A stretch of DNA of 34,611 bases from an uncultured Clostridium sp. (GTDB lineage Bacteria; Bacillota; Clostridia; Christensenellales; CAG-138). Position numbers and translations under genes: made by a program. Shown here piece by piece: positions 3,961 to 34,611 of this stretch. Positions within the stretch are counted from its first letter, which is position 1; the number at the start of each line of letters is the position of its first letter. The stretch is taken from positions 1 to 34,611 of the forward strand of contig CAZJYV010000001.1 of assembly GCA_964550295.1 (NCBI GenBank). The letters are read 5' to 3'. The notes under the pieces are model-generated. The model was given only the letters and a program-made list of their open reading frames with translations. It did not search any database and was not told where the DNA came from.

Positions 3961-3961
3961 A

Positions 3962-4694: not shown

Positions 4695-6074
4695 ATGGAA
4701 GATTCGGTCCGGGAAAGACCGGTTGTCAAACGCCGGATCTTGATACGCGTTATCGCGGTCGTTCTTGTGGTAGGCCTGATCGCGACAGCGGGGTTGATCG
4801 AAGCGAGCAGAATCGTTTTTGGCGATGTCGCAGGCGCGAATGCCGCTGAGCAGGATGCGGCGGATTACATAGAAAACACCACGGAATATCTCGGCGCGCC
4901 GCTCACCCAGCGCATGGCGAACGTGCTTTATTCCTACCTGAGGGAACCTGTGACATACGCGGATCATTATCTGCGCATGTCGCTTTCGATATCAAAAGGC
5001 GCGTATTCCGACGCGGCGGAAAGCTGCGCCCGGTGCATTGAATTGTGGAACGATGAAGATCAGCCCCTGTCGGAACTTTGGACCAGACTCGCCTGTCTCG
5101 ATGCGCTGCTGGGCGACTACGAGAAAGCTCGGGATGAGCTGGATACAGCCGTCGGACTGGGCAGCGCGGCAGACGATCCCACGATGTATCTGCTCCGCGC
5201 GCAGATGAGCGCACAGCTTGGCGAAGCGGAGCCGGCGTTATCCGATATAACGGCGTATGAGAGCCTGACCGGGGATGCCGTGTCACTGCTTGCGATCAAA
5301 GGCCCGCTCTACGAAGCAACCGGCGCGTATCTGCTGGCGGAGGAGGTTTATACGGCGATGTTATCCGTCGCGGACGCGGGCGCTTCCGATCCCGCCATAT
5401 ATGGAAGCCGCGCGCGGGTGAGGCTGCTGATGAACGATTATGCAGGCGCGCGCGCGGACGCGGAAGCCTTTTTTGCGGCGGGGTGCGCGGATGAAGACGG
5501 CGCCACGCGTTATATTTTGGCCGCATGCACCCTGCAGGAGCAGAATTACGCCCTGGCGGAGGAGAACTTCCTGCTTGCGCTTGAGGAAGGATATCCCAAT
5601 CCAGCCGAGGTGTATCCCTCTCTGGTATATGTCCGCTATATGCAAGGCGACCTTGTTGGCGCAAAAACGGCGGGAACAGAAGCGCTTTCCATCGAAGGCG
5701 GGGAAACGGCTGAGCTTTTGCAGTGGATGGGCGTCATCGATATGGCGCAGGGCGCGTATGACGCGGCGTCGTCGTATTTTGCCCGCAGCGCAGCGCTCGA
5801 TGATACGCAAACGGATCTTTACTACTACATGGGCGTGTGCTTGGTCGCACTCGACGATTATCAAGCGGCGGCGGACGCATTTACGGTATCTGTGGGGCGG
5901 GGTGAATCGCTCGCGGAAAGCTATTACAACAGGGGCGTCTGCTACGCGGCTCTTGAGCAATATGAAAGCGCTTATGCCGATATGCTTTCGGCCATCGCGT
6001 TCTCGCAGGATGGGGAACTCACTGCTTCGGCGACCGATCTTCGGGACAAGCTCGCCAAAGCGCTTGACAAATAA
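4695..6074 (+). CDS. N-terminally membrane-anchored TPR-repeat protein (459 aa)
   Basis: This is a track ORF. It has a basic N-terminus followed by a TM span, ILIRVIAVVLVVGLIATAGLI. Repeated TPR-like helical pairs follow, e.g. YYYMGVCLVALDDYQAAADAFTVSV and YYNRGVCYAALEQYESAYADMLSAI. Confidence 0.75.
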   Translation: MEDSVRERPVVKRRILIRVIAVVLVVGLIATAGLIEASRIVFGDVAGANAAEQDAADYIENTTEYLGAPLTQRMANVLYSYLREPVTYADHYLRMSLSISKGAYSDAAESCARCIELWNDEDQPLSELWTRLACLDALLGDYEKARDELDTAVGLGSAADDPTMYLLRAQMSAQLGEAEPALSDITAYESLTGDAVSLLAIKGPLYEATGAYLLAEEVYTAMLSVADAGASDPAIYGSRARVRLLMNDYAGARADAEAFFAAGCADEDGATRYILAACTLQEQNYALAEENFLLALEEGYPNPAEVYPSLVYVRYMQGDLVGAKTAGTEALSIEGGETAELLQWMGVIDMAQGAYDAASSYFARSAALDDTQTDLYYYMGVCLVALDDYQAAADAFTVSVGRGESLAESYYNRGVCYAALEQYESAYADMLSAIAFSQDGELTASATDLRDKLAKALDK

Positions 6075-6136
6075 AGGACGCAACGCACGGGCGCGCCGCT
6101 GGTCGGCGCAAGGGTTCACACGGAAAGGATCGTCGT

Positions 6137-6238
6137 ATGAAAAAACTTCTTGGCAGCCATGCGAAATTCACGATGGGGGCGCTGCTTGCGTTTTTGGTGG
6201 CGTTTGCGTTGATTTGGACGCCGTCCGCCGCGCTGGCC
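6137..6238 (+). other. Sec-type signal peptide of the giant protein (34 aa, predicted cleavage ALA|EE)
   Basis: MKKLLGSHAKFTMGALLAFLVAFALIWTPSAALA|EEST has a basic n-region, a hydrophobic core and an AxA site. Confidence 0.8.
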
Positions 6239-9200
6239 GAGGAGAGCACCGATACGACAGCCGACCCCGGAGCGAGCGACGTTGACACGTCAGGCGGCAC
6301 TGCGCCGGGAACCGCCACGGTGGGAAGCATCGTGGAGGAAGGCACGGAGCAAGTCGCGCAAGGAGAAGCGAAGATTTACGACAACGCACCGGTCGAGCAG
6401 ACGACGACCACCGGCGGCGAAACGACGACGACCGAGGTGGAGAAGTCCGCGCTGCAAAAAGCCGTTGAATACGCGCTTACCCAAATTCAGGCGGATACCG
6501 AGAGCATCACCATCACGCTGACCGAAGGCACATACACAGGGGATGTGGCAATCGACAAAACAAACCTCGGGGGCGTGGATACATCCAATTTCAAACTGTT
6601 CATCCTGGCAAGCGACGCCGTTGTTACGGACGACGGGGGCAACACCACCTACACGAACGCGAACGGTGCCACAAAAGTGAACGGCAACATCACCATCGAC
6701 GGGCTCGATGTTGTGCTTGCCGGTATTTACATGGCCGTAGATAAGGCGATCAACGCTAAAAATACGGATGTTTCCATTTTTGGCACAACGGCAGGGGACA
6801 CCTATACCGTTAACGTCGGCGGGCGCGAAGGCGAGGATGACGATCAAACCGAGGTCAGCGTCGCGGGCGGCGCGGGCGGCGATACCATCAGTGTCACCGC
6901 GCAGACGGGCAACGCGGACATCGATATCGATGGCGGAGACGGCGGGGATGTCATCTCCGTTGACGGTACCACCGCGCCGGACGCGCAGGGCACTTCCGTT
7001 GATGTCAGCGGCGGCGCGGGCAGCGACGTGATCAACATCGACACCTCCGTTGCGGGCGGCGCAAGCCTTGTTTCCGTCAACGGCGGTTCCGGGGATGATA
7101 AAGTTCATCTGACAGGCTATCTCGATGAGGACGATAAGGACCAGGACGGCGCAGACGCACCGCGCATCGGCGGCAGTGCGACGCGTATCGACCTGCGGAA
7201 TAAAAACAACAAGGCGCTCGGCCTTGCCTTCAGCGGCGTGGAGCTTTTTACGGACGCGCTTTACAACAAGGCGTGCGTCACAGTCGCGGCCATCGGCGCG
7301 GACGGCAGGCTTTATTCAGACGCGGAAAAAACCCAGCTGATTACGTTCTCTCCCTTCACCGATTATTCGTATGACGCGATCAGCGGCGAGACCATCACCG
7401 GCATCAGCGACACATCCTCCGGCGCATTCCTTGCGAGCTTCTGGATCACCTGCATCGAAACGGACTTCAACGGCATCAACAACGACATCACGCTGGGCAA
7501 CATCAACCTGCCCGGCATAACGCTTGTCGTCAGGGCGGGGAAAGTCACCGTCACGGGAATTGTAAACGCGCTATCCATCCGGATCTTCGCAACCGATTCG
7601 GACGATCTTTATAAAGAATATATCCTCAACCTTGACGAGCTGCCTTTGCCCGACGGACTTGCCAATTCCGCCGCGGGGCAATCGCTCGACGTGAACGGAA
7701 GCCTTCTGGATTTCGTCACCAACGCCTACATTAATATAAAGGAAGGGGCGCACCTCAATGCCAACGGCTCCGTTGAGCTGACTGCGACCAGCTCGCAGAC
7801 GCACGCGCTCATCGACCTGATCAATGGCATCACCAACGCGCTCAACTTCATCTGCGTCAAGGTCGGGTCGGCCAGCATCACGATCGACGGCACAGTGAGC
7901 GGCACCAATGTGAGCGCCACCGCCGCCACGAATGTCACGATGTCCGCGAGCAATTCCACGCTTGCCCCGTACTTTGTACCCCTCGCGGTGAGCGTTTGCG
8001 TGGCTGACGCGCGCGTGACCCTCTCCGACACGGGCAGCATCACGGCCACCGGCAACGTGAACCTTTCGAGCACGAGTACCATCCAGGTCACGACAGAAGC
8101 ATGCACAGGCAGCATCCCCTTTTCACTTGCGGTGTCCGTAGTCGTCAGCGATGCGCATACGAGCGTTGCGGGTGATATTACGGCAGGCGGCGATATCAAC
8201 CTCACAACTGCCGCCACTGAGGATGTGACCACGCAATCCCACCGCGGAAACGCTTCAACCGGCAGCAGCGGCGGCTACTTCGCCATCGCTGTGACCCTTC
8301 AGGATGCCGATGCTTCCGTAACAGGTACGTCCGCGCTCAGCGCGCTTGGCGGCATCAACGTAAAATCCACCGCCATCGAGAAGGTGCTTACCACCGCTAC
8401 CTCCGCCAAACCGGAGGAGCAGAACGGCGGAACCACGCTTGACAAGGTGATTGCCAAAGTGAAGGAACTGCTCTCTACCGTGGCCGGCAAGCTCGGCGGC
8501 GCAATCAAAAACAAGATCACCGGCGCAACCGGCAACATGACCGGCGCACAGTATACCATCGCTGCCTCATCCACCACCAACGGCACAGTGAGCGCACCGG
8601 TTTCCAAGGCGAACGCGGGCGATACCGTCAAGCTGACCCTCACCCCGGCCAAGAACTACGAGGTTGACCAGGCATACATCAAATACCTCGAGCCCGGCAA
8701 GAGCAGCTATACGACCGTCGGCCTTTCAAACGGCAGCTTCGTGATGCCGGCCTTCAATGTAACGATCGTCGTCACATTCAAAAAAACCGCCGGCACGCCT
8801 GCCGATGACGATACGAGTTCCCTCTACGGGGATGGCGACGCCACCAAGCCCGGCGATCTGTTCGACGATGAGGATGACGGCGGCGGCGACCTGGGCATCT
8901 CCGATCTGTTCGACGAAGGCGCGGGCGGCACACAGGGTACGTCCGGCGGCGCAAGCGAAAACTCCGCCGACGCCGGCGCAAAGACCGTCACCCTCACGCA
9001 GCCCGCAAACGGCGCGCTCCTGTGCGCTGTCACAAAAGTGGATGCAGGCAAACAGGTGGCTGTCACCGTCAATCCCGCCTCCGGATACAAACTGACCGAG
9101 AACTCCCTTACCTATACTTATAACGATCCCGACAACGCGGGCAAGAAGCTCACCAACGTCATCAGAGCCAACGCGAGCGGCGCATATCTGTTCACTATGC

Positions 9201-12200
9201 CCGATGCCGATGTGACCGTGACCTGCGCTTTCGAGGCGGGAACGGACACCACCACGAATAACAACACCCCTTCGGGCAATCAGCTCACCGGCGCGCTTGC
9301 GGTAGCGGTCGTTATCAACAATAACAAAGCCTTCATCGATACGACCGGCGCAGTCGGCGCGGCGGGACAGGTCAACGTGACAACCGTCGGCGTGACCCAG
9401 TCCACCGTCGGCGCGGACGGTTCCCCCGCGGCGAAGGAAATTACCGCCGATACCGCGGCGGGCGAATCGCTGCGCGACCCGCAATCCTCGACCACCTTCG
9501 GGCAGGAGAAGGGGCATCTCACCGTTAAGCCGACGGTCAACGGCTCCATCCAGCTTCTCTCCAACAACGATGTTCAAATCGGCGACACCGTCGCCTTCCT
9601 GGTTGTACCTGCCGAGGGCAGCAAACTCAAGGAAGGCTCCGTTCAATACGTCGTTACCTATAAAGATGATACCGGCACGCACACCGCGACGCTCACGCCC
9701 ACCAAGGACGGTTCCGTTGCGAACAAATACTATTTTGTGATCGAGCATCCCGCGGGCGGCGTACTTGACGCAGCCTGCACGTTTGTGCTTTCGGCCGAGT
9801 TCGAGGCTGATCCGCACGCGATCACCGTCAACATCACAGGCGGCGGCACCGCCACGGCCGGCGCAGCTTCCGCCAAGGCGGGGGATGAAATCACCCTCAC
9901 CCTCACCCCGAACGAAGGATGCGGCGTTAAGACCGTGAAGGTAAACGGCGTTGCCGTTACTGCTGCGGATGGTGTTTACAAATTTAAGATGACCGCGACG
10001 GACGCTGTTGTGGATGTGGTATTCGGTGACAAGGAATATGCCGTCGTTCTTCACGAGGATTCCGCGGCAGTTTCATCTTATATTAAAATATCCAACTCCA
10101 AGGCGGATATCGGGGACAGGATCGCCGTCACGCTGACAGATGAGGCAGTCGCCCTCGGCAAGAAGATCGCCTCCGTGAGCGTGGAGTTCTATAATTTCGG
10201 CGGTGCGCTCCAGGCGAGCATCCAGGTGACGGTTGACGCGGACAACACCTTTGTCATTCCCGACAGCGTGGACGGTTATGTCAGCAACGAGCTCGGCACG
10301 GCGACATTCAAGGTTAAGGTGACGCTTTCCGACAAAACATACGCACTCACAACCGAGGTTCTGCCCGCTTCCGGCACCGCGACGCCCGCGCCTTCCGGCA
10401 CGATCAGCGCGCCTGCCAAGGTCGACAGCCTCGAACAGATCTCCGTGACCATCACGCCCAACGCGGGCTGCAAGCTCGTTCCCGGTTCGGTGAAAGTCAT
10501 CACCACGAACGGCGTGCAGAATACGACGGTGACGATCGTCATCGATACCCTCACCTTCGACGGAACGAAGTATACCTTCACCTATAAGCTGCCGATTCTG
10601 AGCGCCGCAGGGACCGAGACCAGCACCGTCAAAATTCAGGCGCAGTTCCAGCGGGGCACGGAAACCACAACCAAGAAGGATACCGTCAGCCTCGGCGTGG
10701 GCATCGCCGTGGGCGTTACGCTCCATAAAAGCGAGGCATATGTTCAGAACGCGGACATCACCGCCTCCGGCCTGAATATTGCCGCCACCAGCGGCAGCAG
10801 GGATGAGCGCGTCATTTCCTCCGTCACCGCTAAGGCAGGCGTCGCGGCGGGCACAATCGGCATCGGCGGTGCTGTTGCGGTCAACGTCGCCTCCGCAAAG
10901 ACCCATGCGCTCCTTTACAACACAGCGACCGTTCGCCTTACGGGCGGCGGCACGATGTCGATGGAGGCATCCTCTTTCGAACGCTTCACCACCATAGGCG
11001 ATGCGGCGAACAACACGGGTTCCTCCACGAGCGTCGGCATCGGTGCCGGCATCGCGGTGGGCGTGTACGGCGTTGAAGTATACGGTGCGGTTGAGGATGC
11101 AACGGATATCGCGCAGGCGCAGGGCGCGGCGGATATCCAAAGCATCACCATCGGAGCGGAGCATGACCTTGCGGAATCCATGCTGGCCAAGGCCGGATCC
11201 GCCGGCGGAACCAGCATCACGCCCGTGCTTGCGGTGCTGATTTCCGGCGCGGATGTGCAGGCGTATCTGGGCAAAGCGCCCACAGGCGCAAACGGTACGC
11301 TGAGCGTCGCGTCCGACATCACCATCAAAGCGGCAAGCAGCATCAACCGCGAAATGGCGGCCAACGCCGCCGCGGCAGGTTCGTCCGTGGGATTCGGGGG
11401 CGCGTTTGCCATCAGCGTTTTGAATGATTCCGCTATCGCGCGCCTCTCCCGCAACGTTCATGTGAAAAACGGCAACATCAGCGTAATCGCGCGCAGCCGC
11501 AACAACTTAAAATCCACCTCCCGCGCGGGCGCGAACGGCGCGCCTGCATCCGGCGGTTCCACCGCGGCGGATGGGTCCGGCGATTCCTCCGCGGGAGGGT
11601 CGTCTTCCTCCGGCTCAACCGGCGACGGGTCAGGGTCATCCGACGCACAAGCGGATAAAGCCCTCACTTCCGGGGGCAAGCTCGCCAATCTGACGGGCAC
11701 GAACAACACAAGTTCAAACACGCTTGGCAAACAGAATTATAACAGACAGCCGTCGCAAACCAGCGAGGGCAGCGTCAGCATAGCCGCAGGCTTCGCGCTC
11801 AACATCATGCGCAACGACTGCCGCGCCTATCTGGATGACGGCATAACGGTCGAAGCGCACGGCACGGATGAAATCGATTCCTCCGGAAACACCGTGAGGA
11901 AGGGCGAAGTCAATGTACAAAGCTTCAGCCTGGTCGGCGCGCAGATCGCGGCCAACGCTTCCGCCACGAAGAGCAAGATCGGCGTGGGCGTGGCGGTTGC
12001 CATCAACATCGTAACCTATCAAAACAGCGCTTATGTCGGCAATAGCCTCGTGAACTGTAACTACATCAACGTAACCGCCCTCATGGAGGAAAAGGTCAAG
12101 ACCACCAAGGTTACGCCGACCGCCGCCGTGACGGATGCGAACATCCTCGTCACCCTCGTCAAAAACGCGATTTCCGGCTTCCTCACCGATTTGGAGGAGG

Positions 12201-30200: not shown

Positions 30201-33200
30201 TGGGCAGCAGCGACGGCGCGCAGGATCTGCTGCTCATGCGCAGCACATCCTCTTACCTGCCGCAGGAGATTGCGATGAACGGCATCGTAGAATCGATGGA
30301 GACCTCGGGCGAAAAGGTGATCATCGTCGTCGAGAGCGAGGGCGAAACCTGGATCGGCTCCGCAGGCGCTGGCAGGCGGGACATTTATGCCGACGAGGTA
30401 TCCTTCTACGTCAACGGCAGCGCAAGCTCCATCGGCACAAGCCTGGATCATGTATCCATCGGGGCGTTCAGCGCGGACAACCACACCGTTACGATGTATA
30501 TCTTCGGATATGACCCCGCCGGACTGACCGTACCCACCTATTCCGGCAGCGCATTCCTCGATGTGTTCGATCACATGGTGCTGCGTTCCGCCGAGCTTGA
30601 AGGCGGCAGCCTGATCGAGTACCACCTGTTCAACGGTTCGAGCCTAACGTTCCTCGACGCGGATATGGCAGGCACGGTGCGCGTAACCGATGAGGCGGGC
30701 GGCGTAAGCAATGTGACCATCGGCACCAACGGAGCAAGCGGCGATTTGGGCGGCATAAGGCTTGCGGGCGGCACGCTGGACATCGATGTGGACGGCGACA
30801 TCGCGTTTGACAAGATCGAACTTTTGGGTGGTGCGAAGCTTTACCTGCGTACGACCTTCGGTGGAATCAGCCATGTAGGCGCAGGCGGCTACCTCTATGC
30901 GGACGCGAGCGCGGGCAACGGCATCGTCCTGCGCGCGGCGGGGAATATCGGGCAGGCATCGAACCGCCTGATCATCGACGTACCCGCGTCGCTCACCGTT
31001 GAAATCGAACAGGCACTGAATATCTATATCGAAGCCGTCGCACTCACGGGAAACGTGCCATTTGCGCGCGCGTATCCCGCGGATCCCGCGCAGGCGGGCG
31101 GGCGCGATGTGAACGGCAACCAGGCATCCGGCGACTTGATGGGCGACGCGGGCGGCGAAACCGTCAACGTACCCGTTGCGAATCAGTCGCCCGAGGCGCT
31201 TTCCGACAGGCTGCTGACCGATTGCGCGGACGACCGCACAAAATGGACAGGCGCAATCAACGACGCGGGGCTTGCGGCTTACATCAACGCCGTGATGGCG
31301 CAAACGAAAGACAGCGCCGATATGCTCAGCAAGAGCGAGCTGATCAAACTGCTCAACCTTGCAGTGCCCGTCGGCGGAACGAAATGGACTGCGGCCACCC
31401 TCGCCGCGAAGACGGATGCAGAGGTTGCGGCGCTGCTCAAGGCGGCCCTCGAACTCCGGAACGCGGGGGATACGGCCTATGTGCTGACAAATGAAAACGT
31501 CGGCGGCGCGCTGACCCTGCTGCTTGGCAGCGACGCGTTCAACAGGAACGGCGCGGGAAGCCTGAGCGAGCTGCTCGAAACGCTTCTGACGGACGAGGAG
31601 CTCGAAAACCTCACCCAAGGCGCGTGGGACGGTGCAACTTATCCCGCTGTCACGCCCGTGGATACGCCCGCAAAGGCGTTCAGCCTGCATATCGGGCAGA
31701 GCACAGGCGCGACGTTCGTTTCAAACGAGGGCGATATCATCATCCTTCAGGATACGGGCGATTTCACGGCGGGTGGTATTGAAAGCCGCCGCGGGGATGT
31801 GCGAATCACAGCGAGCAACGGCGATATCGAGGGTGGCGCGACGAGCGCATCCGATCCGGCCAACATCGTTGCGCGCAGCATCATCCTCAACGCTTCCGGC
31901 GCAATCGGCGGGAACACGCCTCTTGTGATCGACGAAGTGGATAACAGGATCGTTCCCGTTGCAAACATCACAGCGCCCACGGCAAACAGCGCGCCGGCGA
32001 CCGGCTACAAAGATGTAACGGTCGTATACGCGGCGGATCTGGATGGCGACGGCAATCCGATTGCGGGCACGTGGGGATTCCGCCTTGCGGTCGATATTCA
32101 ATACACTTGGATACGCCAATTCTTCGCGGCGGACGCCACGCGCATCGATGCGAACGCGGGCGGTTCAATCGCGATCACCGAGCGAAACGGCAACTTCGGC
32201 GCGGGCATCCTCACCTCCGGCGGCGACGTAACGCTGAACATCGCGGGTGACCTCCTCGACGCGCGGACGGACGCCGAAAGAACCGCTGGTACGCGGAACA
32301 TCACCGGCGCGGGCGATCTGGATGTGACGCTGACCAACTGCGACGTGGGCACGGCAGCCAAACCCATCGCCGTGCGCGTACCCGGGTTGATGCGCGTCAC
32401 CTGTTCGGGCGATGTGTATATTGATGCGCTGGGTAGCCTTACGCTCGATATGAACAGCGGCACAGGGCATACGCAGATTGCGGTCGAGCAGAATCTCACC
32501 CTCAACAGCCTTGGCAGCGCACCGCTCACCGGCAGTGCGCTTGCGGGCGGGTCGATTGCCATCAGCGCGGCGGGCGATATCGGCACGGCGGCCTCACCCT
32601 TTGCGGTGGATACGAACCGACTGCTGACGGGCGGAACGCTGACGCTGACAGGGGCGAACATCTATATTGAAGAATTAACGGGCGATCTGCTGCTCCGGGG
32701 GCTGACGGCTTCCGGCGAAGCGTGGCTGAGCGTGCCGGGCAAACTCCTTGCCGCCCCCGGCAGCGACCTTTCGATTGAGGATGCAGCTGACGCGCAGGCG
32801 GCGGCGAACGAAGCCAAGAATGCAGCCGACCAGGCGCAGGCGGACGCACAGGTCTATGATCGGTATGCAGTCCGACTCGAGGCAGTGGCCGATGTGCGCC
32901 GGCAGGCGAAGCTTGCGGCGGAACAGATCGAGGCTGACGCACTGGCCGTCCTTGCCGCTGCGCAGACTGCCAACTCCGGACGCAAAAGCGCCGAGATCGA
33001 AGCAGACATCCTTGCGAAGAAAGACGCGCGCAACCTGCTCAACCCGCTGGATGCGGACTATATGACAAACTATCTGGCGCTAACGGCCGAAATCAACGCG
33101 CTCGCCAGCGAACTTGCCGCCAAAAAGCAAACCCAGCAGCAAGAGGATGCGGCGCGGGCAGCTTACGAACGGGCGCATGGCGTTGCCGAAACGGCCAGAA

Positions 33201-34611
33201 GCGCATTTAATGCGACGGCGCTTGCGGCGTCCGGTGCGCGCACGGAGGCAAACAGGCTTGCGGGCATCGCAGCGGACAGGCTGAACGATTACGCAAACGC
33301 GCTCTCAACGCTTGAAAGCAGACTGCTTGCGGCGGTTGCGGCAACCTCCGCCGTGACCACGGGCGGAAACCTGACCCTGATTGCGGGCGGCGGCGTCGGC
33401 GAGGGCTGCGCGCTGCGCGCGAACGTCGGCGGAAAACTGTTTGTCGCGGGCGGAACGGGCGGCGTATCGATTGCCTCGGGTGCGGATTTGGCCATAGGCG
33501 GCATCACCGCGGGGGGAACGGTCAGCGTCAAATCGCTTGGCGGCATAACGGGTGCGGCGGACGAAGGGCAGGCTGATCTCACAGCGCCGACGGTGCGGCT
33601 CGTATCCCTCGGCTCGCATGACGTGGGCGCGCGGACCGACCCGGTCCGACTGAGCGCGGACAGCTTCTCCGGCTCCGGCAGGAACGTATATCTGACAAAC
33701 GATCGGGCGATTGTCCTTGGCAGTGTGACGGGCGACCAGGATGTCGTCATCCGCGCGGCGGGCGATATATCGACAAGCGGCGGCATACTTTCAGCCTTCA
33801 GGCTGGAGGTCGCGGCGGACGGCGATGTGAACATCGATACGAGTGCGGGCAGCCTGCTTGTTACCGGCAGGAACATCACGATCGTCAACCATTCCCCGCA
33901 CCTGAACGTGCTGGAAATGAAGGGCGAAACGCTCACGCTGGCGACGGACGGCTCCCTCGGGACGGATCCGCATGGCACTGGCATCGAGGGACGGAGCCTG
34001 CTGATTGCCGCAGGCGGCGACATCGGCACCAAAGACCAGCCGCTCAGGGTTCTCATTACGGGCAAGGTCGAGGCGACATCGCTCTACGGCGAAGTGCATA
34101 TCCTGCTGCTGCAGGACAAGAACGCGAACTATTCGCATCGCGTGCTGAAGGATGAAAAGACAGGCGTTATCGTTGAGGGCCACAGCATCCATTGGGCGAC
34201 GACGCTGCGCGTGGATGATATCGACTTCGACGGGGATTCACCCCTGCTTGAGATGATCCGCGCGGCCATCAGGGCGCACAAGCTCCTCGCAGGTTACGAG
34301 ATCGTGCTCGATGCGGGCGGCGCGCAGGCGTATCGCGGCAGGCTTACGATCACCATCCCCGTGGATGAAGCGTACAACGGGCGGACGGTGTATGTGCTCT
34401 ATGAGGATCAAAACGGCGCGACGGTCAGCGTGGAATGCGTGGTTGAAAACGGTGCTGTGACCTTTGTGGCGGAGGGATACACCTCTACGGTGGCGGTGGT
34501 GCTGCCTTTGGTCGGCATCCCGCAGACGGGCGGCGCATGGCTGCCCATCGCGTGGCTGCTGCTTGCGGCCGGACTCGTGATGTTTGCCGCAGCGCGCGGG
34601 AGAAGGAAAGA
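6137..34611 (+). CDS. Giant secreted, cell-wall-anchored beta-strand-repeat fibre/adhesin-like protein; at least 9,491 aa, 3' end just beyond the window
   Basis: It is not in the ORF track. ATG 6137 is preceded by AAAGGA, with 7 nt between. I read all 9,491 codons in phase (position mod 3 = 2) and found no stop. The track lists no + ORF in this phase after 6137, as expected for an ORF with no stop in the window. The N-terminus is a Sec signal peptide. The C-terminus is IPQTG, a 21-residue hydrophobic span and RGRRK, and the window ends 2 nt into the next codon. Confidence 0.93.
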   Translation, partial: MKKLLGSHAKFTMGALLAFLVAFALIWTPSAALAEESTDTTADPGASDVDTSGGTAPGTATVGSIVEEGTEQVAQGEAKIYDNAPVEQTTTTGGETTTTEVEKSALQKAVEYALTQIQADTESITITLTEGTYTGDVAIDKTNLGGVDTSNFKLFILASDAVVTDDGGNTTYTNANGATKVNGNITIDGLDVVLAGIYMAVDKAINAKNTDVSIFGTTAGDTYTVNVGGREGEDDDQTEVSVAGGAGGDTISVTAQTGNADIDIDGGDGGDVISVDGTTAPDAQGTSVDVSGGAGSDVINIDTSVAGGASLVSVNGGSGDDKVHLTGYLDEDDKDQDGADAPRIGGSATRIDLRNKNNKALGLAFSGVELFTDALYNKACVTVAAIGADGRLYSDAEKTQLITFSPFTDYSYDAISGETITGISDTSSGAFLASFWITCIETDFNGINNDITLGNINLPGITLVVRAGKVTVTGIVNALSIRIFATDSDDLYKEYILNLDELPLPDGLANSAAGQSLDVNGSLLDFVTNAYINIKEGAHLNANGSVELTATSSQTHALIDLINGITNALNFICVKVGSASITIDGTVSGTNVSATAATNVTMSASNSTLAPYFVPLAVSVCVADARVTLSDTGSITATGNVNLSSTSTIQVTTEACTGSIPFSLAVSVVVSDAHTSVAGDITAGGDINLTTAATEDVTTQSHRGNASTGSSGGYFAIAVTLQDADASVTGTSALSALGGINVKSTAIEKVLTTATSAKPEEQNGGTTLDKVIAKVKELLSTVAGKLGGAIKNKITGATGNMTGAQYTIAASSTTNGTVSAPVSKANAGDTVKLTLTPAKNYEVDQAYIKYLEPGKSSYTTVGLSNGSFVMPAFNVTIVVTFKKTAGTPADDDTSSLYGDGDATKPGDLFDDEDDGGGDLGISDLFDEGAGGTQGTSGGASENSADAGAKTVTLTQPANGALLCAVTKVDAGKQVAVTVNPASGYKLTENSLTYTYNDPDNAGKKLTNVIRANASGAYLFTMPDADVTVTCAFEAGTDTTTNNNTPSGNQLTGALAVAVVINNNKAFIDTTGAVGAAGQVNVTTVGVTQSTVGADGSPAAKEITADTAAGESLRDPQSSTTFGQEKGHLTVKPTVNGSIQLLSNNDVQIGDTVAFLVVPAEGSKLKEGSVQYVVTYKDDTGTHTATLTPTKDGSVANKYYFVIEHPAGGVLDAACTFVLSAEFEADPHAITVNITGGGTATAGAASAKAGDEITLTLTPNEGCGVKTVKVNGVAVTAADGVYKFKMTATDAVVDVVFGDKEYAVVLHEDSAAVSSYIKISNSKADIGDRIAVTLTDEAVALGKKIASVSVEFYNFGGALQASIQVTVDADNTFVIPDSVDGYVSNELGTATFKVKVTLSDKTYALTTEVLPASGTATPAPSGTISAPAKVDSLEQISVTITPNAGCKLVPGSVKVITTNGVQNTTVTIVIDTLTFDGTKYTFTYKLPILSAAGTETSTVKIQAQFQRGTETTTKKDTVSLGVGIAVGVTLHKSEAYVQNADITASGLNIAATSGSRDERVISSVTAKAGVAAGTIGIGGAVAVNVASAKTHALLYNTATVRLTGGGTMSMEASSFERFTTIGDAANNTGSSTSVGIGAGIAVGVYGVEVYGAVEDATDIAQAQGAADIQSITIGAEHDLAESMLAKAGSAGGTSITPVLAVLISGADVQAYLGKAPTGANGTLSVASDITIKAASSINREMAANAAAAGSSVGFGGAFAISVLNDSAIARLSRNVHVKNGNISVIARSRNNLKSTSRAGANGAPASGGSTAADGSGDSSAGGSSSSGSTGDGSGSSDAQADKALTSGGKLANLTGTNNTSSNTLGKQNYNRQPSQTSEGSVSIAAGFALNIMRNDCRAYLDDGITVEAHGTDEIDSSGNTVRKGEVNVQSFSLVGAQIAANASATKSKIGVGVAVAINIVTYQNSAYVGNSLVNCNYINVTALMEEKVKTTKVTPTAAVTDANILVTLVKNAISGFLTDLEEELGLSQYFDANGVDEKYTLSGIIETIISSVLGKGLNALLAGTGLEKLLSSDIAEKLQSVKDSIFNIFTSDEATAEALTRLKTIAIQDLISLVAGMVTQMAQQGNAQQQQGADADAAKQQQNNQSVKDKIITTIKEKITFSNLSAAAQVEGAKFLTTLADQLVGSFGGDLIDVNALTNYLKTNLSAHLMTSLKSALSTAGVALTTAALDTLTYYMGTKLEGDTRPTNTFKTEAVAGAGAGSVGVAGSVALSVITGSTKAYIADYNAALAPSAGTGIIAAKMTTIKAYALQNEYTVASGAVGGKGTADANLGAGTSTTNDTAAQNNTTNETTPDPDGGEGETPTAGGEQTNGKLRVVTSTGGTATAYGYQSKDDGQCTVEVTCDPGYVVDEITATITTGAGVAPTVWATTANREYKFSMGGLVSGNAGGDLVITINVTFKKTQSDPYTVTVGATTNGTVKVHSDTNETDAASTTAKESEKVYVVISPSAGYTLDTLTYTYKGQTKKIVSQESSATKTTFIFLMPNADATVNATFKAVDPNAPVNTQNTNSSGKSVGVGAAFALTVSVFTVEASIGANRTVTSGGIELGADGEKKNTTSSVAGSDPLANASDGTSKDISLDASAAVAIQTTSITATVKSGAVITANGGNTVTVTEAVKDAEGNVTAPAVLAGFYMHAKEIATTIVKASSFAVGAETAVGAAVAVNIAISDVAARFLGTGAVSGKARLEATSLSKDDSHALATAMGADMQRYTDKFAKGQEQAENFANNMSSGKYFDNTGSTANTNNGTAGKVNSSLNNNANNEQGGSQPQASNDLPLSTNALRAQNASTEDQAQTNSTTTTGTTTANNNTGSTTNPDTNTSNPTGVTTTQTQTNKQSVQIAAAVAVNVTVHAIEAMLAGALTASEFEIEAENNGNFRTIASGAAMSLAQNSNAVAAAVAVSVNRNEALASIADGSTVTMTRDSSGSGAVTVAATLTANLNDAYRGYLGAQAIAGAVSGSGGKVSFGGALAVIVSRAVTSATIGKNVHLYNGGSVVISAVDKTKLALRAGGVSVSKGGSAVGVGASFAVIYAHNEITAAIGDNSDLHVGSLKLIAEKQRLDMSDYENAAGFDRLLTDTSNLSAAEREQANTGIISVYREKDAATGKLSDSYKVEVNITTEKIIGALDLLNFLSACNYYAEAISGSIVAGAGQDAKASVAGSLAMIFFFNTINALIGSSVNIVSEGDVAVEASNDATVRIIAGSLTVSPAKVGVGATVGFILNSDTVTARVGESSAISAGGAYKQDASGKANVQVYTIAASISAGANESTATVGGTVNAIAAKNAVLSEIAQDVVVDAASVAVISSLAMEMMLISLSISAGNSKVAVGGTVAVIVDQSSAKTKIGEDVTLIAQTGAGVSNTLVSALASASGAPQGVTVAGVLSVLVALFKSNVEIADGAYIEAKLGNVRVASTAKSFMVIVGLAATGSAAGSAAVGATISVNVFQHESKVAIGTVVMKAGGDITVFATGEDLTILVNMALAAAGSGSAIAGTLPVVVSDTEIEASIGDNSKISAMGSIAVAADLTSKTIDVAGGLAAGGGSAGVGATLSTAVYMSKITARVGSGVTIYAGAAGLGVLTPNRSEKRRGILVSATGNELLILVAISAGAAGTAGVAGVINTLVAKNDVSATVGSGSSLFAGYREGETEGAPVATGHEGQITVEADDETAIANCAGALGAGGTAGVGATVVVLVFCKTVTADLSSAAIVRASGNVNVTANAKDDLWLLALAFGAAGTAGVAGGVNALVFTNKVNALLGGTIDAGGDVAIKASSDSGLYNVAAGLAFGGTAGVTAVAVVTYFYNETIARITDNTHLQAGGAVSVRAESDEFVTADAAGVSGGGTAGVGGTLDIIITKVVTKAYTGSNVRVTCGGALSVTAIDTYSLIAAVVTVAVSGTAAVGVTVLVSLSFNTINAEIGLNNIITAGSVTVQASSNRDILTVVATAAGSGVAGVGVSLSVVVAGSKISQDAHDGIYAGGSSMDPQAQTDGAFSAGNAAALEGQKPGDDLGDMLEGDGQNVGNEDYNSYGQDTSGQYYVRPGSGEDTTASGVLRGTDGFYYRPERSEDELTKRYTFTKDGAGGNVFTKAVFYVVSGADAEGNPVYEQLNEDAASSISGDLYARKMVDGAYEYHKVDKNTRSEGSDAGMNDETYDQTAEGMQYAGGKITGLTDTTSAVINGGSSVLTTAGNIDVLANDTINANMIAGTIAIGIGGAGVGVGLSVAVLMSNVNAIVADDATLSAQGNINIIASSGSLAKPIEQLTSGSNGADGSPNAVGTQGANDMAKDQTGNDGTAATIRLISVTGAGGFVGVGVSAAVLMVFSNVQAKLLGDVTRADAVTVSGKMNFGEVLTVTIGVAGGAVAVNVSAGVAYFGGTIETAIGGNAKIGGVSGTIKVETTGVANTISAAAGIAGGAVAVNAGIALAISRTKIHTYVGRGVTVNIPGSVEVYTGFTSNCTAMILSIAGGAVAVGATAAIAINNTQAYTYIGITPSGDVAQGSSLTGGKVTASGVQVASTLAGNTYVAGVGIAGGAVAVNATVALGFNRVKNITAINGAGIETAGNIELSGGLSGNTTVVTTSIAGGAVAVGATVALAQIKSENRVFIDSTGVTVKAANIAVKAGDIGAINASEASVAIVAGTAGAIAVALNFAIALNQAKNSAEIIGTRGSEASGVYNLDASGLIEIGAKGEAHAFAIAANASAGLVAASASFALAIIQSTQQALLTGTSKIRAARLSVWSIHNTETFVPKVFSLFSGYDRNSSGEYIDENGSVIQESDADFEQKRVEKSTSFTATGAATALIISAAAGYYTITANSVIAVADATSRAKVSVSDLTVTGAGGASVANTADSSAIAKTLNLSFGGFSVGVMTGVAYASGTFEAIFESNGTVELASAPLTVTNLYASSAITEILTASAGILLNVGINTANAVANSIANTGLSGTGSIRAGAIEIRADGTATASAGVSAPALLKNVPSFSTISVAANSAFAQVSAVQNTYVHKVTIDAVSLLAHSIFNYTVDDITPANSGMKADTGAIANVGGSGKGPGGVSVRLIGVELNLANAVMEAKNELILSGSNITLTGDLSVRNDSGANATAGVYQSADAGFVGIGLVQVSANTAGSFIACVNIAAGKRVKARTITVQTTYRSVATAKSAQATNGVSANVLAVNSNIATSVVGSQAEASVTGGGEVETEDDLSVQAFGTAKAWSGFEPLAVAISGGAAAINCLYATLSGTQKALVNGVKVKVGQDMTVLSTFNVGVEDGAFAVLSGGMQGGGSGIDNIKVQVGALTVAGSVAVATSDFTVQALLENADVQVTGDLLVKVDATSVATAKLADDTLKINGLAVGLNFMFAWAKGAYEANIITASGKTIEAGTISVSTIYTTSALAQTGQLSGGMGDLLSANLSYISVNANLGAALSATTAKAAVTGNGTVKTTANPVTGAALDVTATGLADAKAENLAATINLSYIKVGLVVMSADVTVQQSAFVSAGTVSCASARVVSSLNEGWTDKGANAYIGSALNADKSGFDSLNLSVYGGSVNTATATFGGSNTAYIANASIGSAAARATSVIVKTVGTAIALADIAQGNTIGLANIGANVLYAYANGTYTAKVENSVIYAKTLTVETDYTAGATASTTQGAFGLKGVALDANVAWAETTTAGYAYISGGSVDIDSSGKLTVKVTSNATAVSNFATPTISLSGISLAFNLLTAKLNGTAQAYVSGSSVKAAGGADVLVFYNNDATKPGAAVYMNSYGSLASCSLISGGGHVLNATDTSSASAYVSNASFAQGTGAVTIDTRGNSYAVVDKGGSYVNFNIVALGVLVASATADGRFSAYLALQNGNQVHASSLYVGATYSIRAKAIAGQPSLGTNISLIDIDYNQAVAKAGDDKSTALNGDAHITAAGTTLIDVAGDVQILLDGKIEAIARIDAASINISGVDVGVNVVDAYAYAKQKTYISGVRSFLTGGNLTVDATLNPYNSGSHMAYAVTGAAYGVDIAFISGGANSVNASAGTTNESYIHASGITSTGNLGVTATTVAAAKAEALDASLLSLSGIKLAATKVTSGCADTTKAYIYGSGTAIAAYDVLVQATSNAGVQSNVMPPQVSVSLVGGTSVNGTADVSNEVTRAYIDTGVTVRANNCLSVDAAQSVWAKVVCAYAQSYSAIQLGGYSLTAKVTKAEALAYINGTAEAQDSVTLSASSGVTELSVSYEALAASLFSGSANSAAEAKVLDQTAYANVGAGAKIAARMGDITISSRTASNVSSSISSTNYAGLTTGGQISAYSYVKRDTRVSIGDGALVESRYGSVYIEALADYATVSSRSRDDNGSLLSIGSGPVATSNINSTVYVIVGAATIKAIFGDLTIIADAYSRISALAYRNMKAFAGDNTSSASIAATETVKVLLGADLAGVNTTNKAYINALNTLVRAYITDQTLYSYAYSYTIAAGSKTESFSVLSAYDDIDVLIGNAYVGGIDSLSIEAKHIKLDAHAESYSIINAGVTGKVYATSTINGYSNVDVNVRSSAELAGEKVNLAAYAPTFDNGTVFKDATAVANTVISWITRTIQKVSQWIEKKVSKIPFIGWLIKKIVHKIVEWITEIIKIITYSDSESFTTGSLDSQGDLVAGVYIASGAKVHLGGAAAGMQIDVLQDGTVMAAGLDNDYDGNLSAFYTIQGEKMLFGPIYNNDAGTLTITVHNGSLNTASAFTAYGNAYLANIVINNDSNLDLVFDVFRVANPAAIAPDVQSSANNNYQPVLVYADEIPVITINSAGGGDVVFTKTVENVRGSMTIAMTGGTPGDIYAIHDEQGSAIRVNRFTAYGAHNIGKSPTDKLIVEFYNASAKPAQYGSDGRMVRMGETARTSLMDVEAGGTIYISICLVVDIGEIDLTGTTISAYVAALNLPTPKLTVEKIRAGGQVYIEQKQTRIRYTDVSLIASADVDTISYPNGSMSFVANFPAVAPGASASLMQLEGTNYWYSPATGLISIDAQNFAFYAGTLGTAHVSSDYTTYQLPNSVTVTILNATGKIVSVSRLSSSGGADEVYQLSDFTITYDVNGNLVLTLPSTAENETGTSVTIDRETGEATMKIASNGAAIYLRRSAGSLGWELPNGILIYFKSAFVQNGKIVDVTWIGKNGTNDLYVLEDLSDTARNTFHVVEMASGGTGSAFVAGYLYTRTQLTDLINGTAISYYNNIDEAIEAIESAVSGINLNSLGLSFDKQYVLDEDNKPTTEIDIAATYGSLGSENADALTAILTALLTGITAELTNNLTIMLDGFELSIRVSTNGANFAVTKLSVGYSVSDANLPEGTAATLGTAIKNGSGNGTLYSYTNDYAVGDELEGQGADTAITDYGYTHTATEGTLESINVIRSYKTVSGEETVVYTLRTARKSGELTFVSSKENKDAGGNVVSVTSYYSCALAGFEGIVFAINVNIASPDSSTLRAFRLAQGASGETTATADSGGIYTITGMNGGYVVVNGNYRFIDDASDIADPTAILYLTQDAVAVYPDGKIGLVAVEGGTVEVDPDTGERKYIAAKIAIAPTLTQKKDADGKFVYSSIQYYYNKSNVAQRMTYAQYLAWVAADSAAQTAYQAAMDARAAELDAAVAAEKARYEQMGLFLSSWDEAIFRSSYNDYTTQLPDAVTYQVPSWFRSGNYAIEYDAVNGLPVYSVYKDSPDSELDYYKVDYYGSFEQILALARLSGSGYTLNSHLTQAQYDALPYTLKSLFTPVYKSVYNYIDGTVIISPDVDSLGAYVTYVSGANVPAFDIPMDEFGRGILDKETRIVAVKDQTTGKYTNLNLIFLGADGDVAAVYDGTGLRFNEGVSAYDAATTVWSAYAPALVNGENNLLVSYDKGMMVKFLEVMSGVYTTIDSIITDKDTLRWDYANALYFTDGTDGPMLLEKSDTYYAYDLIDNMFNRLAAKPTEGVEGTDYFRAVTLTSPANGLIKLSIMVDVALPQRTRAFEPARTFFVLADGDTLGSSDGAQDLLLMRSTSSYLPQEIAMNGIVESMETSGEKVIIVVESEGETWIGSAGAGRRDIYADEVSFYVNGSASSIGTSLDHVSIGAFSADNHTVTMYIFGYDPAGLTVPTYSGSAFLDVFDHMVLRSAELEGGSLIEYHLFNGSSLTFLDADMAGTVRVTDEAGGVSNVTIGTNGASGDLGGIRLAGGTLDIDVDGDIAFDKIELLGGAKLYLRTTFGGISHVGAGGYLYADASAGNGIVLRAAGNIGQASNRLIIDVPASLTVEIEQALNIYIEAVALTGNVPFARAYPADPAQAGGRDVNGNQASGDLMGDAGGETVNVPVANQSPEALSDRLLTDCADDRTKWTGAINDAGLAAYINAVMAQTKDSADMLSKSELIKLLNLAVPVGGTKWTAATLAAKTDAEVAALLKAALELRNAGDTAYVLTNENVGGALTLLLGSDAFNRNGAGSLSELLETLLTDEELENLTQGAWDGATYPAVTPVDTPAKAFSLHIGQSTGATFVSNEGDIIILQDTGDFTAGGIESRRGDVRITASNGDIEGGATSASDPANIVARSIILNASGAIGGNTPLVIDEVDNRIVPVANITAPTANSAPATGYKDVTVVYAADLDGDGNPIAGTWGFRLAVDIQYTWIRQFFAADATRIDANAGGSIAITERNGNFGAGILTSGGDVTLNIAGDLLDARTDAERTAGTRNITGAGDLDVTLTNCDVGTAAKPIAVRVPGLMRVTCSGDVYIDALGSLTLDMNSGTGHTQIAVEQNLTLNSLGSAPLTGSALAGGSIAISAAGDIGTAASPFAVDTNRLLTGGTLTLTGANIYIEELTGDLLLRGLTASGEAWLSVPGKLLAAPGSDLSIEDAADAQAAANEAKNAADQAQADAQVYDRYAVRLEAVADVRRQAKLAAEQIEADALAVLAAAQTANSGRKSAEIEADILAKKDARNLLNPLDADYMTNYLALTAEINALASELAAKKQTQQQEDAARAAYERAHGVAETARSAFNATALAASGARTEANRLAGIAADRLNDYANALSTLESRLLAAVAATSAVTTGGNLTLIAGGGVGEGCALRANVGGKLFVAGGTGGVSIASGADLAIGGITAGGTVSVKSLGGITGAADEGQADLTAPTVRLVSLGSHDVGARTDPVRLSADSFSGSGRNVYLTNDRAIVLGSVTGDQDVVIRAAGDISTSGGILSAFRLEVAADGDVNIDTSAGSLLVTGRNITIVNHSPHLNVLEMKGETLTLATDGSLGTDPHGTGIEGRSLLIAAGGDIGTKDQPLRVLITGKVEATSLYGEVHILLLQDKNANYSHRVLKDEKTGVIVEGHSIHWATTLRVDDIDFDGDSPLLEMIRAAIRAHKLLAGYEIVLDAGGAQAYRGRLTITIPVDEAYNGRTVYVLYEDQNGATVSVECVVENGAVTFVAEGYTSTVAVVLPLVGIPQTGGAWLPIAWLLLAAGLVMFAAARGRRK
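6866..7108 (+). repeat. Four RTX-like Ca-binding nonapeptides (GGxGxDxUx)
   Basis: The four copies are GGAGGDTIS (6866-6892), GGDGGDVIS, GGAGSDVIN and GGSGDDKVH (7082-7108). Each is followed by a short beta-strand-like segment, and they are 9-16 residues apart. Confidence 0.7.
8552..10651 (+). repeat. Cluster of six roughly 75-105-aa beta-sandwich modules resembling divergent InlB B-repeat (Flg_new-like) domains
   Basis: Module coordinates are 8552-8785, 8984-9235, 9515-9805, 9815-10027, 10034-10336 and 10337-10651. The shared pattern is (T/N)G(T/S)(V/I)...(A/I)G(D)xV/I x(L/V)T(L/V)xP..GY/C.(L/V)...(F/Y)x(F/M)(M/T)(P/A)..(D/N)(A/V)(T/V)(V/I)...F. An example is NGTVSAPVSKANAGDTVKLTLTPAKNYEV...GSFVMPAFNVTIVVTFKK. 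The family name is from memory. Confidence 0.6.
12085..12890 (+). other. Helical insert of about 268 aa, rich in Leu, Lys, Glu and Gln, that interrupts the repeat region
   Basis: It begins MEEKVKTT...LTDLEEELGLSQYF, continues through IAEKLQSVKDSIFNIF, and contains the Gln-rich tract QMAQQGNAQQQQGADADAAKQQQNNQS. It ends LKSALSTAGVALTTAALDTLTYYMG. It has no GxGxxVAVN units and its heptad-like hydrophobic spacing is visible by eye. Confidence 0.6.
13250..13798 (+). repeat. Second cluster of two InlB-B-repeat-like modules
   Basis: Modules lie at 13250-13516 (...GGDLVITINVTFKK) and 13532-13798 (YTVTVGATTNGTVKVHSD...EKVYVVISPSAGYTLDTL...FIFLMPNADATVNATFK). They follow the same pattern as the first cluster. 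Confidence 0.6.
14519..14818 (+). other. Asn/Thr/Gln/Ser-rich low-complexity linker (about 100 aa)
   Basis: NTGSTANTNNGTAGKVNSSLNNNANNEQGGSQPQASN...TNSTTTTGTTTANNNTGSTTNPDTNTSNPTGVTTTQTQTNKQ. Confidence 0.85.
17117..18180 (+). repeat. Seven consecutive units with the 'A-G-T-A-G-V-(A/G)' core
   Basis: The cores are AGAAGTAGVAGVINTLV, GAGGTAGVGATVVVLV, GAAGTAGVAGGVNALV, FGGTAGVTAVAVVTYF, GGGTAGVGGTLDIIIT, SGTAAVGVTVLVSLSF and AGSGVAGVGVSLSVVV. They start near 17117, 17330, 17492, 17651, 17810, 17979 and 18130, so the spacing is about 150-215 nt. Confidence 0.8.
18197..18787 (+). other. Acidic, Tyr/Gly-rich non-repeat insert of about 195 aa
   Basis: QDAHDGIYAGGSSMDPQAQTDG...GDDLGDMLEGDGQNVGNEDYNSYGQDTSGQYYVRPGSGED...GFYYRPERSEDELTKRYTFTKDG...DGAYEYHKVDKNTRSEGSDAGMNDETYDQTAEGMQYAGGK. 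Repeat units flank it on both sides. Confidence 0.8.
19360..20065 (+). repeat. Five consecutive units with the core (I/V)AGGAVAV(N/G)
   Basis: The exact 20-mer ATCGCGGGCGGTGCGGTTGC occurs at 19520 and 19679. The exact 20-mer ATCGCGGGCGGCGCGGTCGC occurs at 19874 and 20030. Spacings are 159, 195 and 156 nt, all multiples of 3. A fifth copy, GVAGGAVAVNV, lies near 19360. Confidence 0.9.
22930..25000 (+). repeat. Gly-poor repeat dialect marked by x-A-Y-(I/V)-x-x-(G/A/S), period about 165 nt
   Basis: The signatures are NTAYIANAS, GYAYISGGS, AQAYVSGSS, ASAYVSNAS, FSAYLALQN, QKTYISGVR, NESYIHASG, TKAYIYGSG, TRAYIDTGV, ALAYINGTA and QTAYANVGA. They lie near 22937, 23267, 23434, 23618, 23782, 24146, 24332, 24497, 24664, 24829 and 24985. 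Confidence 0.8.
25943..26092 (+). other. Trp/Ile/Lys-rich amphipathic helix of about 50 aa in a local GC trough
   Basis: VISWITRTIQKVSQWIEKKVSKIPFIGWLIKKIVHKIVEWITEIIKIITY has four W-initiated units of 11-13 residues (WITRTIQKVSQ / WIEKKVSKIPFIG / WLIKKIVHKIVE / WITEIIKII). It is the only segment of this composition in the ORF. It sits exactly at the junction between the repeat region and the non-repeat region. Confidence 0.8.
26093..31680 (+). other. Non-repetitive region of about 1,860 aa with mixed composition (richer in Tyr, Asp, Glu, Phe and Leu) and unknown function
   Basis: I translated it codon by codon. It has no GxGxxVAVN or xAYI periodicity. It contains a DxDxDG loop (DIDVDGD, 30779-30799), an Ala-rich helix (29000-29110, AQTAYQAAMDARAAELDAAVAAEKARYEQ) and helical TKWT-initiated segments (31240-31620). 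I recognised no catalytic motif. Confidence 0.7.
32771..33345 (+). other. Ala/Gln/Glu/Arg-rich coiled-coil-like stalk (about 190 aa)
   Basis: SIEDAADAQAAANEAKNAADQAQADAQVYDRYAVRLEAVADVRRQAKLAAEQIEADALAVLAAAQ...LTAEINALASELAAKKQTQQQEDAARAAYERAHG...ANRLAGIAADRLNDYANALSTLESRLLAAVAA. It is almost free of Pro and poor in Gly, and beta-helix-like blocks flank it. Confidence 0.7.
34517..34611 (+). other. LPXTG-class cell-wall sorting signal: IPQTG, hydrophobic span and basic tail
   Basis: IPQTG lies at 34517-34531, GAWLPIAWLLLAAGLVMFAAA at 34532-34594 and RGRRK at 34595-34609. The window ends 2 nt into the next codon, so the stop must lie just outside. Confidence 0.85.

Follow-up and report, generated by a model that had tools for sequence, protein, structure and literature searches.

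We analysed a 34,611-nucleotide (nt) stretch of DNA from an uncultured Clostridium sp. (assembly GCA_964550295.1, contig CAZJYV010000001.1, positions 1 to 34,611), the whole of which is called the window below, and found that from position 6137 onward it is occupied by one plus-strand open reading frame (ORF) of at least 9,491 codons. We consider it probable, taking all parts of the reading together, that this ORF represents one intact gene on the chromosome of an uncultured Clostridia lineage (Eubacteriales-type) and that its product is an acidic, Sec-exported and sortase-linked fibrillar adhesin. The protein appears to be a giant sortase-type surface fibre, made mainly of LktA-type and other beta-rich repeats and belonging to an uncharacterised Clostridia family, for which we infer both anchoring and adhesion on good grounds. 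Amino-acid (aa) positions are counted from the ATG at 6137, and features lie on the plus strand unless stated otherwise.

Direct translation of frame 2 from 6137 to 34609 gives 9,491 sense codons and 0 stops, in agreement with an earlier sequence-only reading of the window, which had followed the frame stop-free from this ATG to the last base. The nearest in-frame stop upstream of the ATG is at position 6065, and the resulting stop-free run of 9,514 codons compares with runs of 288-852 codons in each of the other five frames. With the base composition of the window, stops would be expected at ~3.3% of codons, and the probability of finding none in 9,491 codons is ~e^-314, or ~1e-136. The Shine-Dalgarno-like AAAGGA that had been proposed 7 nt upstream of the start can be read directly from the sequence at 6124-6129, with a 7-nt spacer before the ATG. 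Moreover, an independent gene call on the Logan contig L001 uses the same ATG, position 5341 of that contig corresponding by alignment offset to position 6137 of the window. The ORF (6137-34611) is truly open at its 3' end because the window stops in the middle of a codon: the last bases, '...agg aaa ga', imply at least one further codon (Asp or Glu). The ORF listing for 6.2-34.6 kb holds no plus-strand ORF of at least 300 aa and omits ORFs that run off the end, which bears out the earlier suggestion that a caller requiring a stop codon would miss this frame.

The coding character of the frame is uniform. The GC content at third codon positions (GC3) stays at 0.74-0.78 in all 3-kb blocks of the giant ORF, and that at codon position 2 is ~0.5. 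Contig L001, which comes from another sample (run SRR31702755), aligns with window positions 799-16074 at 99.33% identity over 15,276 bp without gaps. Of the 86 differences that fall within the ORF, 62 lie at the third codon position, and synonymous changes (57) outnumber non-synonymous ones (29), a pattern that indicates purifying selection on the giant plus-strand frame. In addition, there are no long near-identical DNA repeats in the giant ORF that would suggest a collapsed assembly, the repeat copies sharing ~65-80% DNA identity. Together with the shadow-like nature of the minus-strand ORFs and the colinear homologues described below, the uniform GC3 and the synonymous-biased strain differences support the earlier claim of one real gene, and they point to a single ORF that is coding throughout.

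The predicted protein of at least 9,491 aa has a computed mass of 962.5 kDa, close to the 1 MDa that had been estimated from its length, an isoelectric point of 4.56 and only 33 Cys residues. Its composition, rich in Ala, Thr and Gly and poor in Cys and Arg, corresponds to the published signature of giant surface proteins (PMC10756260). Pfam and NCBIfam together cover an estimated ~15% of the length; applied to ten ~1,000-aa chunks, they returned only Flg_new_2 and LktA_tand_53, and a search of PDB sequences with both halves of the protein gave nothing below E=0.3. The chain begins with MKKLLGSHAKFTMGALLAFLVAFALIWTPSAALA, followed by EE. This signal-peptide-like segment (aa 1-34, 6137-6238) combines a basic start, MKKLLGSHAK, a hydrophobic core at aa 8-34 with a hydropathy peak of 2.11, and the residues ALA directly before EE, and the arrangement of AxA followed by E or D is common to the homologues P0001, P0003, P0004 and P0155. 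We take it to be a putative Sec signal peptide that would direct secretion. The sequence-only reading had made the same call, of which the signal-like layout was reproduced, the call itself depending on inspection and hydropathy. An acidic, Thr-rich linker occupies aa 35-98.

The linker leads into an N-terminal head (aa 99-760, 6431-8416), for which AlphaFold2 predicts an all-beta solenoid pattern (25-sequence alignment, mean confidence score pLDDT 81.9, predicted template-modelling score 0.77). A Foldseek comparison of the head model with PDB and BFVD found nothing at E<=0.001, and the weak local similarities seen were to RTX beta-rolls (E>=0.2), generic beta-helix passengers and tailspikes. 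A regular-expression scan located four RTX-like GGxGxDxUx turns at aa 244, 266, 292 and 316 (6866-7108), spaced 22-26 residues apart, about one per 22-26 positions of the chain. In the head alignment, positions G195, G197, D199 and G221, equivalent to aa 293, 295, 297 and 319, show conservation of 90% or more across the family, and the Gly and Asp of the motifs belong to its most conserved columns. The GGxGxD turns probably bind calcium; in a protein of a Clostridia lineage, they may represent calcium sites that occur apart from type I secretion, their usual setting.

Six immunoglobulin (Ig)-like domains of the 'divergent InlB B-repeat' type (Flg_new_2, Pfam PF18998) follow at aa 806-1482 (8552-10582), with scores of 39.6-46.8 bits against a gathering score of 23.6, and a custom profile brings the number of copies to seven, the seventh being found at aa 2466-2553, within the stalk. 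The main stalk itself (aa 1505-4790, 10649-20506) consists of degenerate LktA-type tandem repeats of 53-56 aa, recognised both by periodicity and by the NCBIfam model NF012206 'LktA_tand_53' (cut-off 50), which scores 74.4 bits over aa 2851-3849 (6 stretches) and 50.5 bits over aa 3801-4799 (5 stretches), and which marks 15 stretches when applied to aa 1-4800. The periodicity is 52-55 aa, and ~38 repeat copies are counted with a custom profile; self-BLAST at E<=1e-5 does not detect the internal repeats, which are visible with profile methods only. The stalk is interrupted by a helical insert at aa ~2000-2260 and by the seventh Ig-like domain, and it contains low-complexity S/G/N/T/Q linkers at aa ~1800-1880, ~2790-2895 and ~4040-4235. 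An AlphaFold2 model of aa 1505-2300 has a pLDDT of 63 overall and of up to 95 in the repeat blocks. In this model, the repeat unit has two strands of 15-17 residues and a short one, aa ~2000-2240 form a low-confidence helical insert, and the unit may be either a coil of a parallel two-sheet solenoid or an antiparallel hairpin. Foldseek found nothing in PDB at E<=0.001 for the stalk model, the best hit being the FapC amyloid solenoid at E=1. We also observed that Ala/Val/Gly-rich stretches recur every ~54 aa at window positions 17000-20300 (aa ~3650-4700), with a transmembrane-like 19-residue hydropathy above 1.8. Topology predictors would probably mis-call this region as many membrane helices, whereas the equivalent repeats at aa 1505-1800 are modelled by AlphaFold2 as long beta strands.

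The second half of the protein has a homologue in an ORF on the Clostridia metagenome-assembled genome (MAG) contig JAVBWI010000004.1, here called L004, which runs off its locus and, at 33-38% identity, was the only relative found in the genome-contig scan. It aligns with aa 5398-8026 and 8476-9340 of the giant protein, colinearly and at 30-38% identity. A second repeat type, ~5 super-repeats of ~235 aa detected by profile methods, spans aa 4927-6263 (20915-24925), and L004 matches this region in several registers that lie ~237 aa apart. The next ~1,900 aa (aa 6264-8170, 24926-30646) are non-repetitive and richer in Tyr, Trp and Ile; they carry no family assignment and have no match in Pfam, NCBIfam or PDB sequences, and they are ~30% identical to and colinear with the L004 ORF. 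Within them, a Trp/Ile/Lys-rich amphipathic stretch at window positions 25937-26086 (aa ~6601-6650), ...SWITRTIQKVSQWIEKKVSKIPFIGWLIKKIVHKIVEWITEIIKIITY..., is unlike the rest of the protein. Internal repetition and homology to L004, whose C-terminus matches at 38% identity, define a further solenoid-like region towards the C-terminus (aa 8476-9335, 31562-34141), in which GD(I/V)G motifs recur and which includes an Ala/Gln/Glu-rich segment (aa ~8880-9060) that looks coiled-coil-like. Before the anchor lies a small extra domain of ~120 aa (aa 9336-9455, 34142-34501), which appears as an alignment gap because it is absent from L004, and which has a sub-threshold match to DUF4222 (22.4 bits against a cut-off of 27).

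The protein reaches the window end with a segment resembling a cell-wall sorting signal (aa 9461-9491, 34517-34609), in which IPQTG (aa 9461-9465, 34517-34531), 21 hydrophobic residues (34532-34594) and RGRRK (34595-34609) reproduce the tripartite layout of LPXTG-type signals, the true end being at least one codon past the window. At its own end, the L004 homologue has GIPRTGGA followed by a hydrophobic span and then a KKR-rich tail, so that GIP(Q/R)TGGA is common to both. IPQTG is, furthermore, the proven sortase motif of the pneumococcal pilin RrgB (PMC5640630). On the strength of the motif and its neighbours, we regard sortase anchoring as likely. The two termini are mutually consistent, as had been noted before: the signal-like N-terminus and the C-terminal series of motif, span and basic tail were both recovered.

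Relatives of this protein are numerous and mostly fragmentary. An exhaustive HMMER search with aa 36-1200 returned 918 representative proteins at E<1e-3, 56 of them at E<1e-30, the best being 38-41% identical over nearly the full query. All ten relatives whose source records were looked up came from metagenome assemblies or MAGs, and where these sources gave a name it was 'hypothetical protein' of Clostridia, Eubacteriales or Bacillota. Many relatives are truncated by contig ends, and the longest seen have 6,451 aa (MBR1606895.1) and 6,395 aa. P0004 is colinear with aa 7-3097 at 38% identity, P0152 with aa 96-3306, and P0156 (6,451 aa) with aa 100-4732, followed by a weak match to the next repeat type. 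Because the two homologue sets, P0155/P0156 and L004, overlap at aa 4,875-6,260, the order of modules along the whole ORF is backed by homology, even though none of the relatives extends over its full length. When a mobile-element origin was considered, neither the head nor the stalk proved to have relatives on plasmids. Word-index protein searches gave no match for the last 1,200 aa or for aa 5401-6600, and one match for the head. Negatives of this kind are not to be trusted for such proteins, given the 918 HMMER relatives against a single word-index match; the Ala/Gly/Thr low-complexity composition seems to swamp the list of at most 8,000 candidates.

Several observations weigh against our reading, and they leave some room for other explanations. 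The stop codon of the giant ORF lies beyond the window end; an exact 26-mer from the last bases, used to seek the stop codon and the 3' assembly, had 0 matches in metagenome contigs, and a profile of the C-terminus found 0 relatives there. Cover by a second assembly extends over the first ~3,300 codons only, ending at 16074, and exact look-ups with the flanking TPR and PGM proteins retrieved only five short Logan contigs, the longest of which reaches that same position in its aligned part. No near-identical sequence for the 3' two-thirds was found in two metagenome scans and three word-index protein searches, and the remaining ~6,200 codons rest on homology and codon statistics. It could be argued from this end of the cover that the ORF is an assembly artefact, in which two or more paralogous giant genes were fused into a chimera or a repeat array was collapsed or expanded, and that the true gene is shorter or different. 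Misassembly is frequent in giant repetitive genes, and the best chain of homologues consists of two parts, P0156/P0155 (aa 43-4782, weakly to ~6066) and L004 (aa 4875-9340). However, a chimera that kept one frame open over 9,491 codons with uniform GC3 would be very unlikely, the internal repeats are too divergent to offer long exact repeats that might mislead an assembler, and the two sets of homologues meet in an overlap at the super-repeats, with module order kept; we hold such an artefact to be quite improbable. We give next to no credence to the idea that the real genes are the minus-strand ORFs and that the plus frame is non-coding. Ten minus-strand ORFs of at least 300 aa (301-823 aa) do lie inside the giant ORF region, but all ten share one phase relative to the giant frame, their GC content peaks at their own codon position 1 rather than 3, they are Arg/Ala/Gly-rich, and none has a Pfam match at E<=0.001. 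Furthermore, the strain differences are synonymous-biased in the plus frame, and homologues exist for the plus-strand frame only. By these marks, the minus-strand ORFs are best explained as phase-locked shadows of the giant frame. A collapsed assembly and genuine minus-strand genes had both been named beforehand as outcomes that would overturn the single-gene claim, and the sequence comparisons favour neither.

The other two explanations accept the gene and differ from ours in what becomes of its product. The curated anchor profiles are not matched: the only hit among them, NF033073, scores 15.4 bits where the cut-off is 48 (E=0.014), and no match to Pfam Gram_pos_anchor (PF00746) is reported at E<=10. 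There is no sortase gene in the 34.6-kb window or next to the L004 homologue, and the distant full-length relatives P0155 and P0156 end without a sorting motif, which means that anchoring is not a family-wide trait. Thus, the protein might be secreted without sortase linkage, the hydrophobic span acting as a plain membrane anchor or the protein being shed, with IPQTG unused. We think this unlikely. Although the hidden Markov models for LPXTG anchors are not significant, the tripartite signal is complete at the very end of the protein, the GIP(Q/R)TGGA sequence is kept in a homologue only 38% identical, and IPQTG has been proven as a sortase substrate motif elsewhere; sortase genes are, moreover, often unlinked to their substrates. 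Of the earlier statement that the protein is wall-anchored, what stands is the presence of motif, span and tail and their retention in one homologue, while the anchor profiles and the lack of a sortase gene in the window speak against it. Nor can much probability be given to a main role other than adhesion, be it as an LktA-related contact-dependent cytotoxin, as an envelope sheath or spacer, or as the carrier of a polysaccharide-active beta-helix enzyme. The stalk repeats do belong to a family named after a leukotoxin, the beta-solenoid fold of the head is common to many glycan lyases and hydrolases, and ~1,900 aa carry no family assignment. No adhesive domain of known specificity was recognised, which counts against our own reading, nor was a ligand-binding domain identified. 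Against the other roles, however, domains for toxins, enzymes or pore formation were found by none of Pfam, NCBIfam, PDB sequence search and Foldseek, the LktA repeat is probably a structural element and not the toxic part of the leukotoxin, and a tip, a long stalk and a wall anchor form the standard layout of fibrillar adhesins. We infer adhesion as the function from this layout, from the Ig-like spacers and the solenoid-shaped head, and from a composition that is characteristic of giant surface proteins.

For a sortase-linked fibrillar adhesin, the following course of events can be proposed. The signal peptide would send the unfolded chain through the Sec translocon, with cleavage after ALA34. 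At the other end, IPQTG, the hydrophobic span and RGRRK would hold the chain in the membrane until a sortase cleaves the Thr-Gly bond and attaches Thr9464 to peptidoglycan, as the motif and its conservation in one homologue suggest. Outside the cell, the chain would fold into a long, mostly beta-solenoid fibre. Going outward, this fibre would comprise an anchor-proximal solenoid with a coiled coil, a middle part formed by the ~235-aa super-repeats and the LktA-type stalk of 53-56-aa repeats with helical and low-complexity hinges, and a distal part with the seven Ig-like spacer domains and the N-terminal beta-solenoid head with its GGxGxD turns. The head, far from the wall, would most likely be the adhesin for a host, dietary or microbial surface.

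Comparison with known systems helps to place the protein. The Fusobacterium necrophorum leukotoxin LktA, a diderm protein, has 3,241 aa (~336 kDa) and leaves the cell with the help of a partner transporter in the outer membrane. Its 53-aa tandem repeat also builds the ~3,300-aa stalk described here, and both proteins are very large filamentous exoproteins rich in Ala, Gly, Val and Thr. Unlike LktA, however, the giant protein comes from a Clostridia lineage, is ~3 times longer, and combines a predicted Sec signal peptide with Ig-like domains, a head of another kind and a sortase-type C-terminal signal. Two-partner secretion (TPS, type Vb) finds no counterpart either, as Pfam detected no TPS domain (Haemagg_act) or haemagglutinin repeat anywhere in the protein, and no partner transporter gene (TpsB) is present among the upstream genes (TPR, DUF5685, DnaJ, PGM); the N-terminus looks like a classical signal peptide. 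The Staphylococcus aureus protein Ebh (~1.1 MDa) is similar in that it has an acidic composition rich in Ala and Thr, a repetitive stalk between tip and anchor, an attachment to membrane or wall at the C-terminus and a signal peptide such as is predicted here, and the earlier placement of the giant protein in the size class of the largest bacterial surface proteins such as Ebh agrees with the computed mass. Ebh is composed of helical FIVAR/GA modules and ends in a membrane-spanning segment, not a classical LPXTG signal. In the giant protein, Pfam found no FIVAR/GA modules over the whole length or in the ten ~1,000-aa chunks, and the stalk is predicted to be a beta-solenoid.

A parallel within the Bacillota is offered by Giant1-5 of Apilactobacillus kunkeei, extracellular proteins of 3,000-8,000 aa (PMC12863079), in which a beta-solenoid head at the N-terminus is likewise followed by a very long, repetitive rod rich in Ala and, at the C-terminus, by a module for association with the wall, and for which an adhesin function is proposed, as it is here. 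Giant1-3 have alpha-helical rod repeats, an SH3b-like non-covalent C-terminus and an SRRP-solenoid-like head (PMC12863079), whereas the present protein has a beta-rich LktA-type rod, a sortase-type end and a head with no significant PDB match. With Streptococcus pneumoniae RrgB, which carries the pilin-type signals used by class C sortases, it shares the identical pentapeptide (PMC5640630), but it has no CnaB or CnaA pilin domains and no pilin motif, and the window contains no pilus-type sortase locus; the 9,491-aa protein is not a pilin subunit. The likeness to RTX beta-roll proteins lies in the four GGxGxDxUx motifs of the head and in a weak, local resemblance, seen with Foldseek, to the beta-rolls of RTX block V and serralysin. 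Unlike in those proteins, the motifs occur once per 22-26 residues and not as tandem nonapeptides, and there is no C-terminal type I secretion signal context; the Pfam output contains no RTX/HemolysinCabind family, and the Foldseek similarity is not significant (E>=0.2). Size alone is not unprecedented, since bacterial proteins of >30,000 aa and up to 85,804 aa have been documented (bioRxiv 10.1101/2023.11.21.568195). The protein is no new category of biology, as giant adhesin-like proteins, some of them much larger, are already known.

It is possible, although we advance this with some doubt, that the window gives the first essentially full-length view of an uncharacterised Clostridia family of megadalton fibres, and maybe of its largest member, in which LktA-type repeats are joined to a monoderm-style signal peptide and a sortase anchor, and in which head and stalk folds have no detectable solved counterpart. 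LktA-type repeats are otherwise known from diderm toxins and adhesins that are exported with a partner transporter. If this view is correct, a repeat module has crossed between secretion and anchoring systems that differ greatly, and ~85% of the giant protein is new structural territory. More generally, the combination of LktA-type repeats with a sortase-type anchor would illustrate how repeat modules are reused across cell-envelope types. Genes this large are usually fragmented in metagenome assemblies and dropped by ORF callers that require a stop codon, and a near-complete copy is useful as a reference for the family because the close relatives found are fragments labelled 'hypothetical'. 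A surface fibre of ~1 MDa would be a large investment for the cell and probably governs attachment to host mucus, dietary particles or other microbes; ligand screening could thus be aimed concretely at the head domain.

The gene at 4695-6074, upstream of the giant ORF and on the same strand, ends 62 nt before it and encodes a TPR protein of 459 aa whose N-terminal part includes a hydrophobic segment. The two genes may be co-transcribed, because the gap is only 62 nt long and contains no plus-strand terminator-like hairpin, and because a promoter-like site is found further upstream at 4596-4624. The gene upstream of the homologue P0026 encodes a GerE/sigma70_r4 protein unrelated to the TPR gene. 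A cyclic di-GMP riboswitch is found on some clostridial sortase substrates; Rfam gave no matches in the window, including the region upstream of the giant gene, and no such riboswitch was found. Downstream of the giant gene in L004 (L004 12788-20535) are genes of polyamine and arginine pathways, namely an Orn/Lys/Arg decarboxylase, a saccharopine dehydrogenase-like gene, a carboxynorspermidine-decarboxylase-like gene and an ADI-family gene, and this region has no sortase gene and no synteny with the window. On the minus strand, a cluster at 2469-4384 encodes a DnaJ-domain protein, a DUF5685 protein and a 140-aa protein with two CxxC pairs (zinc-ribbon-like). The DnaJ-domain protein contains a Gly/Ser/Tyr-rich 21-nt tandem repeat at 2866-2934, and the DnaJ/DUF5685/CxxC gene order also occurs on Logan contigs of other samples.

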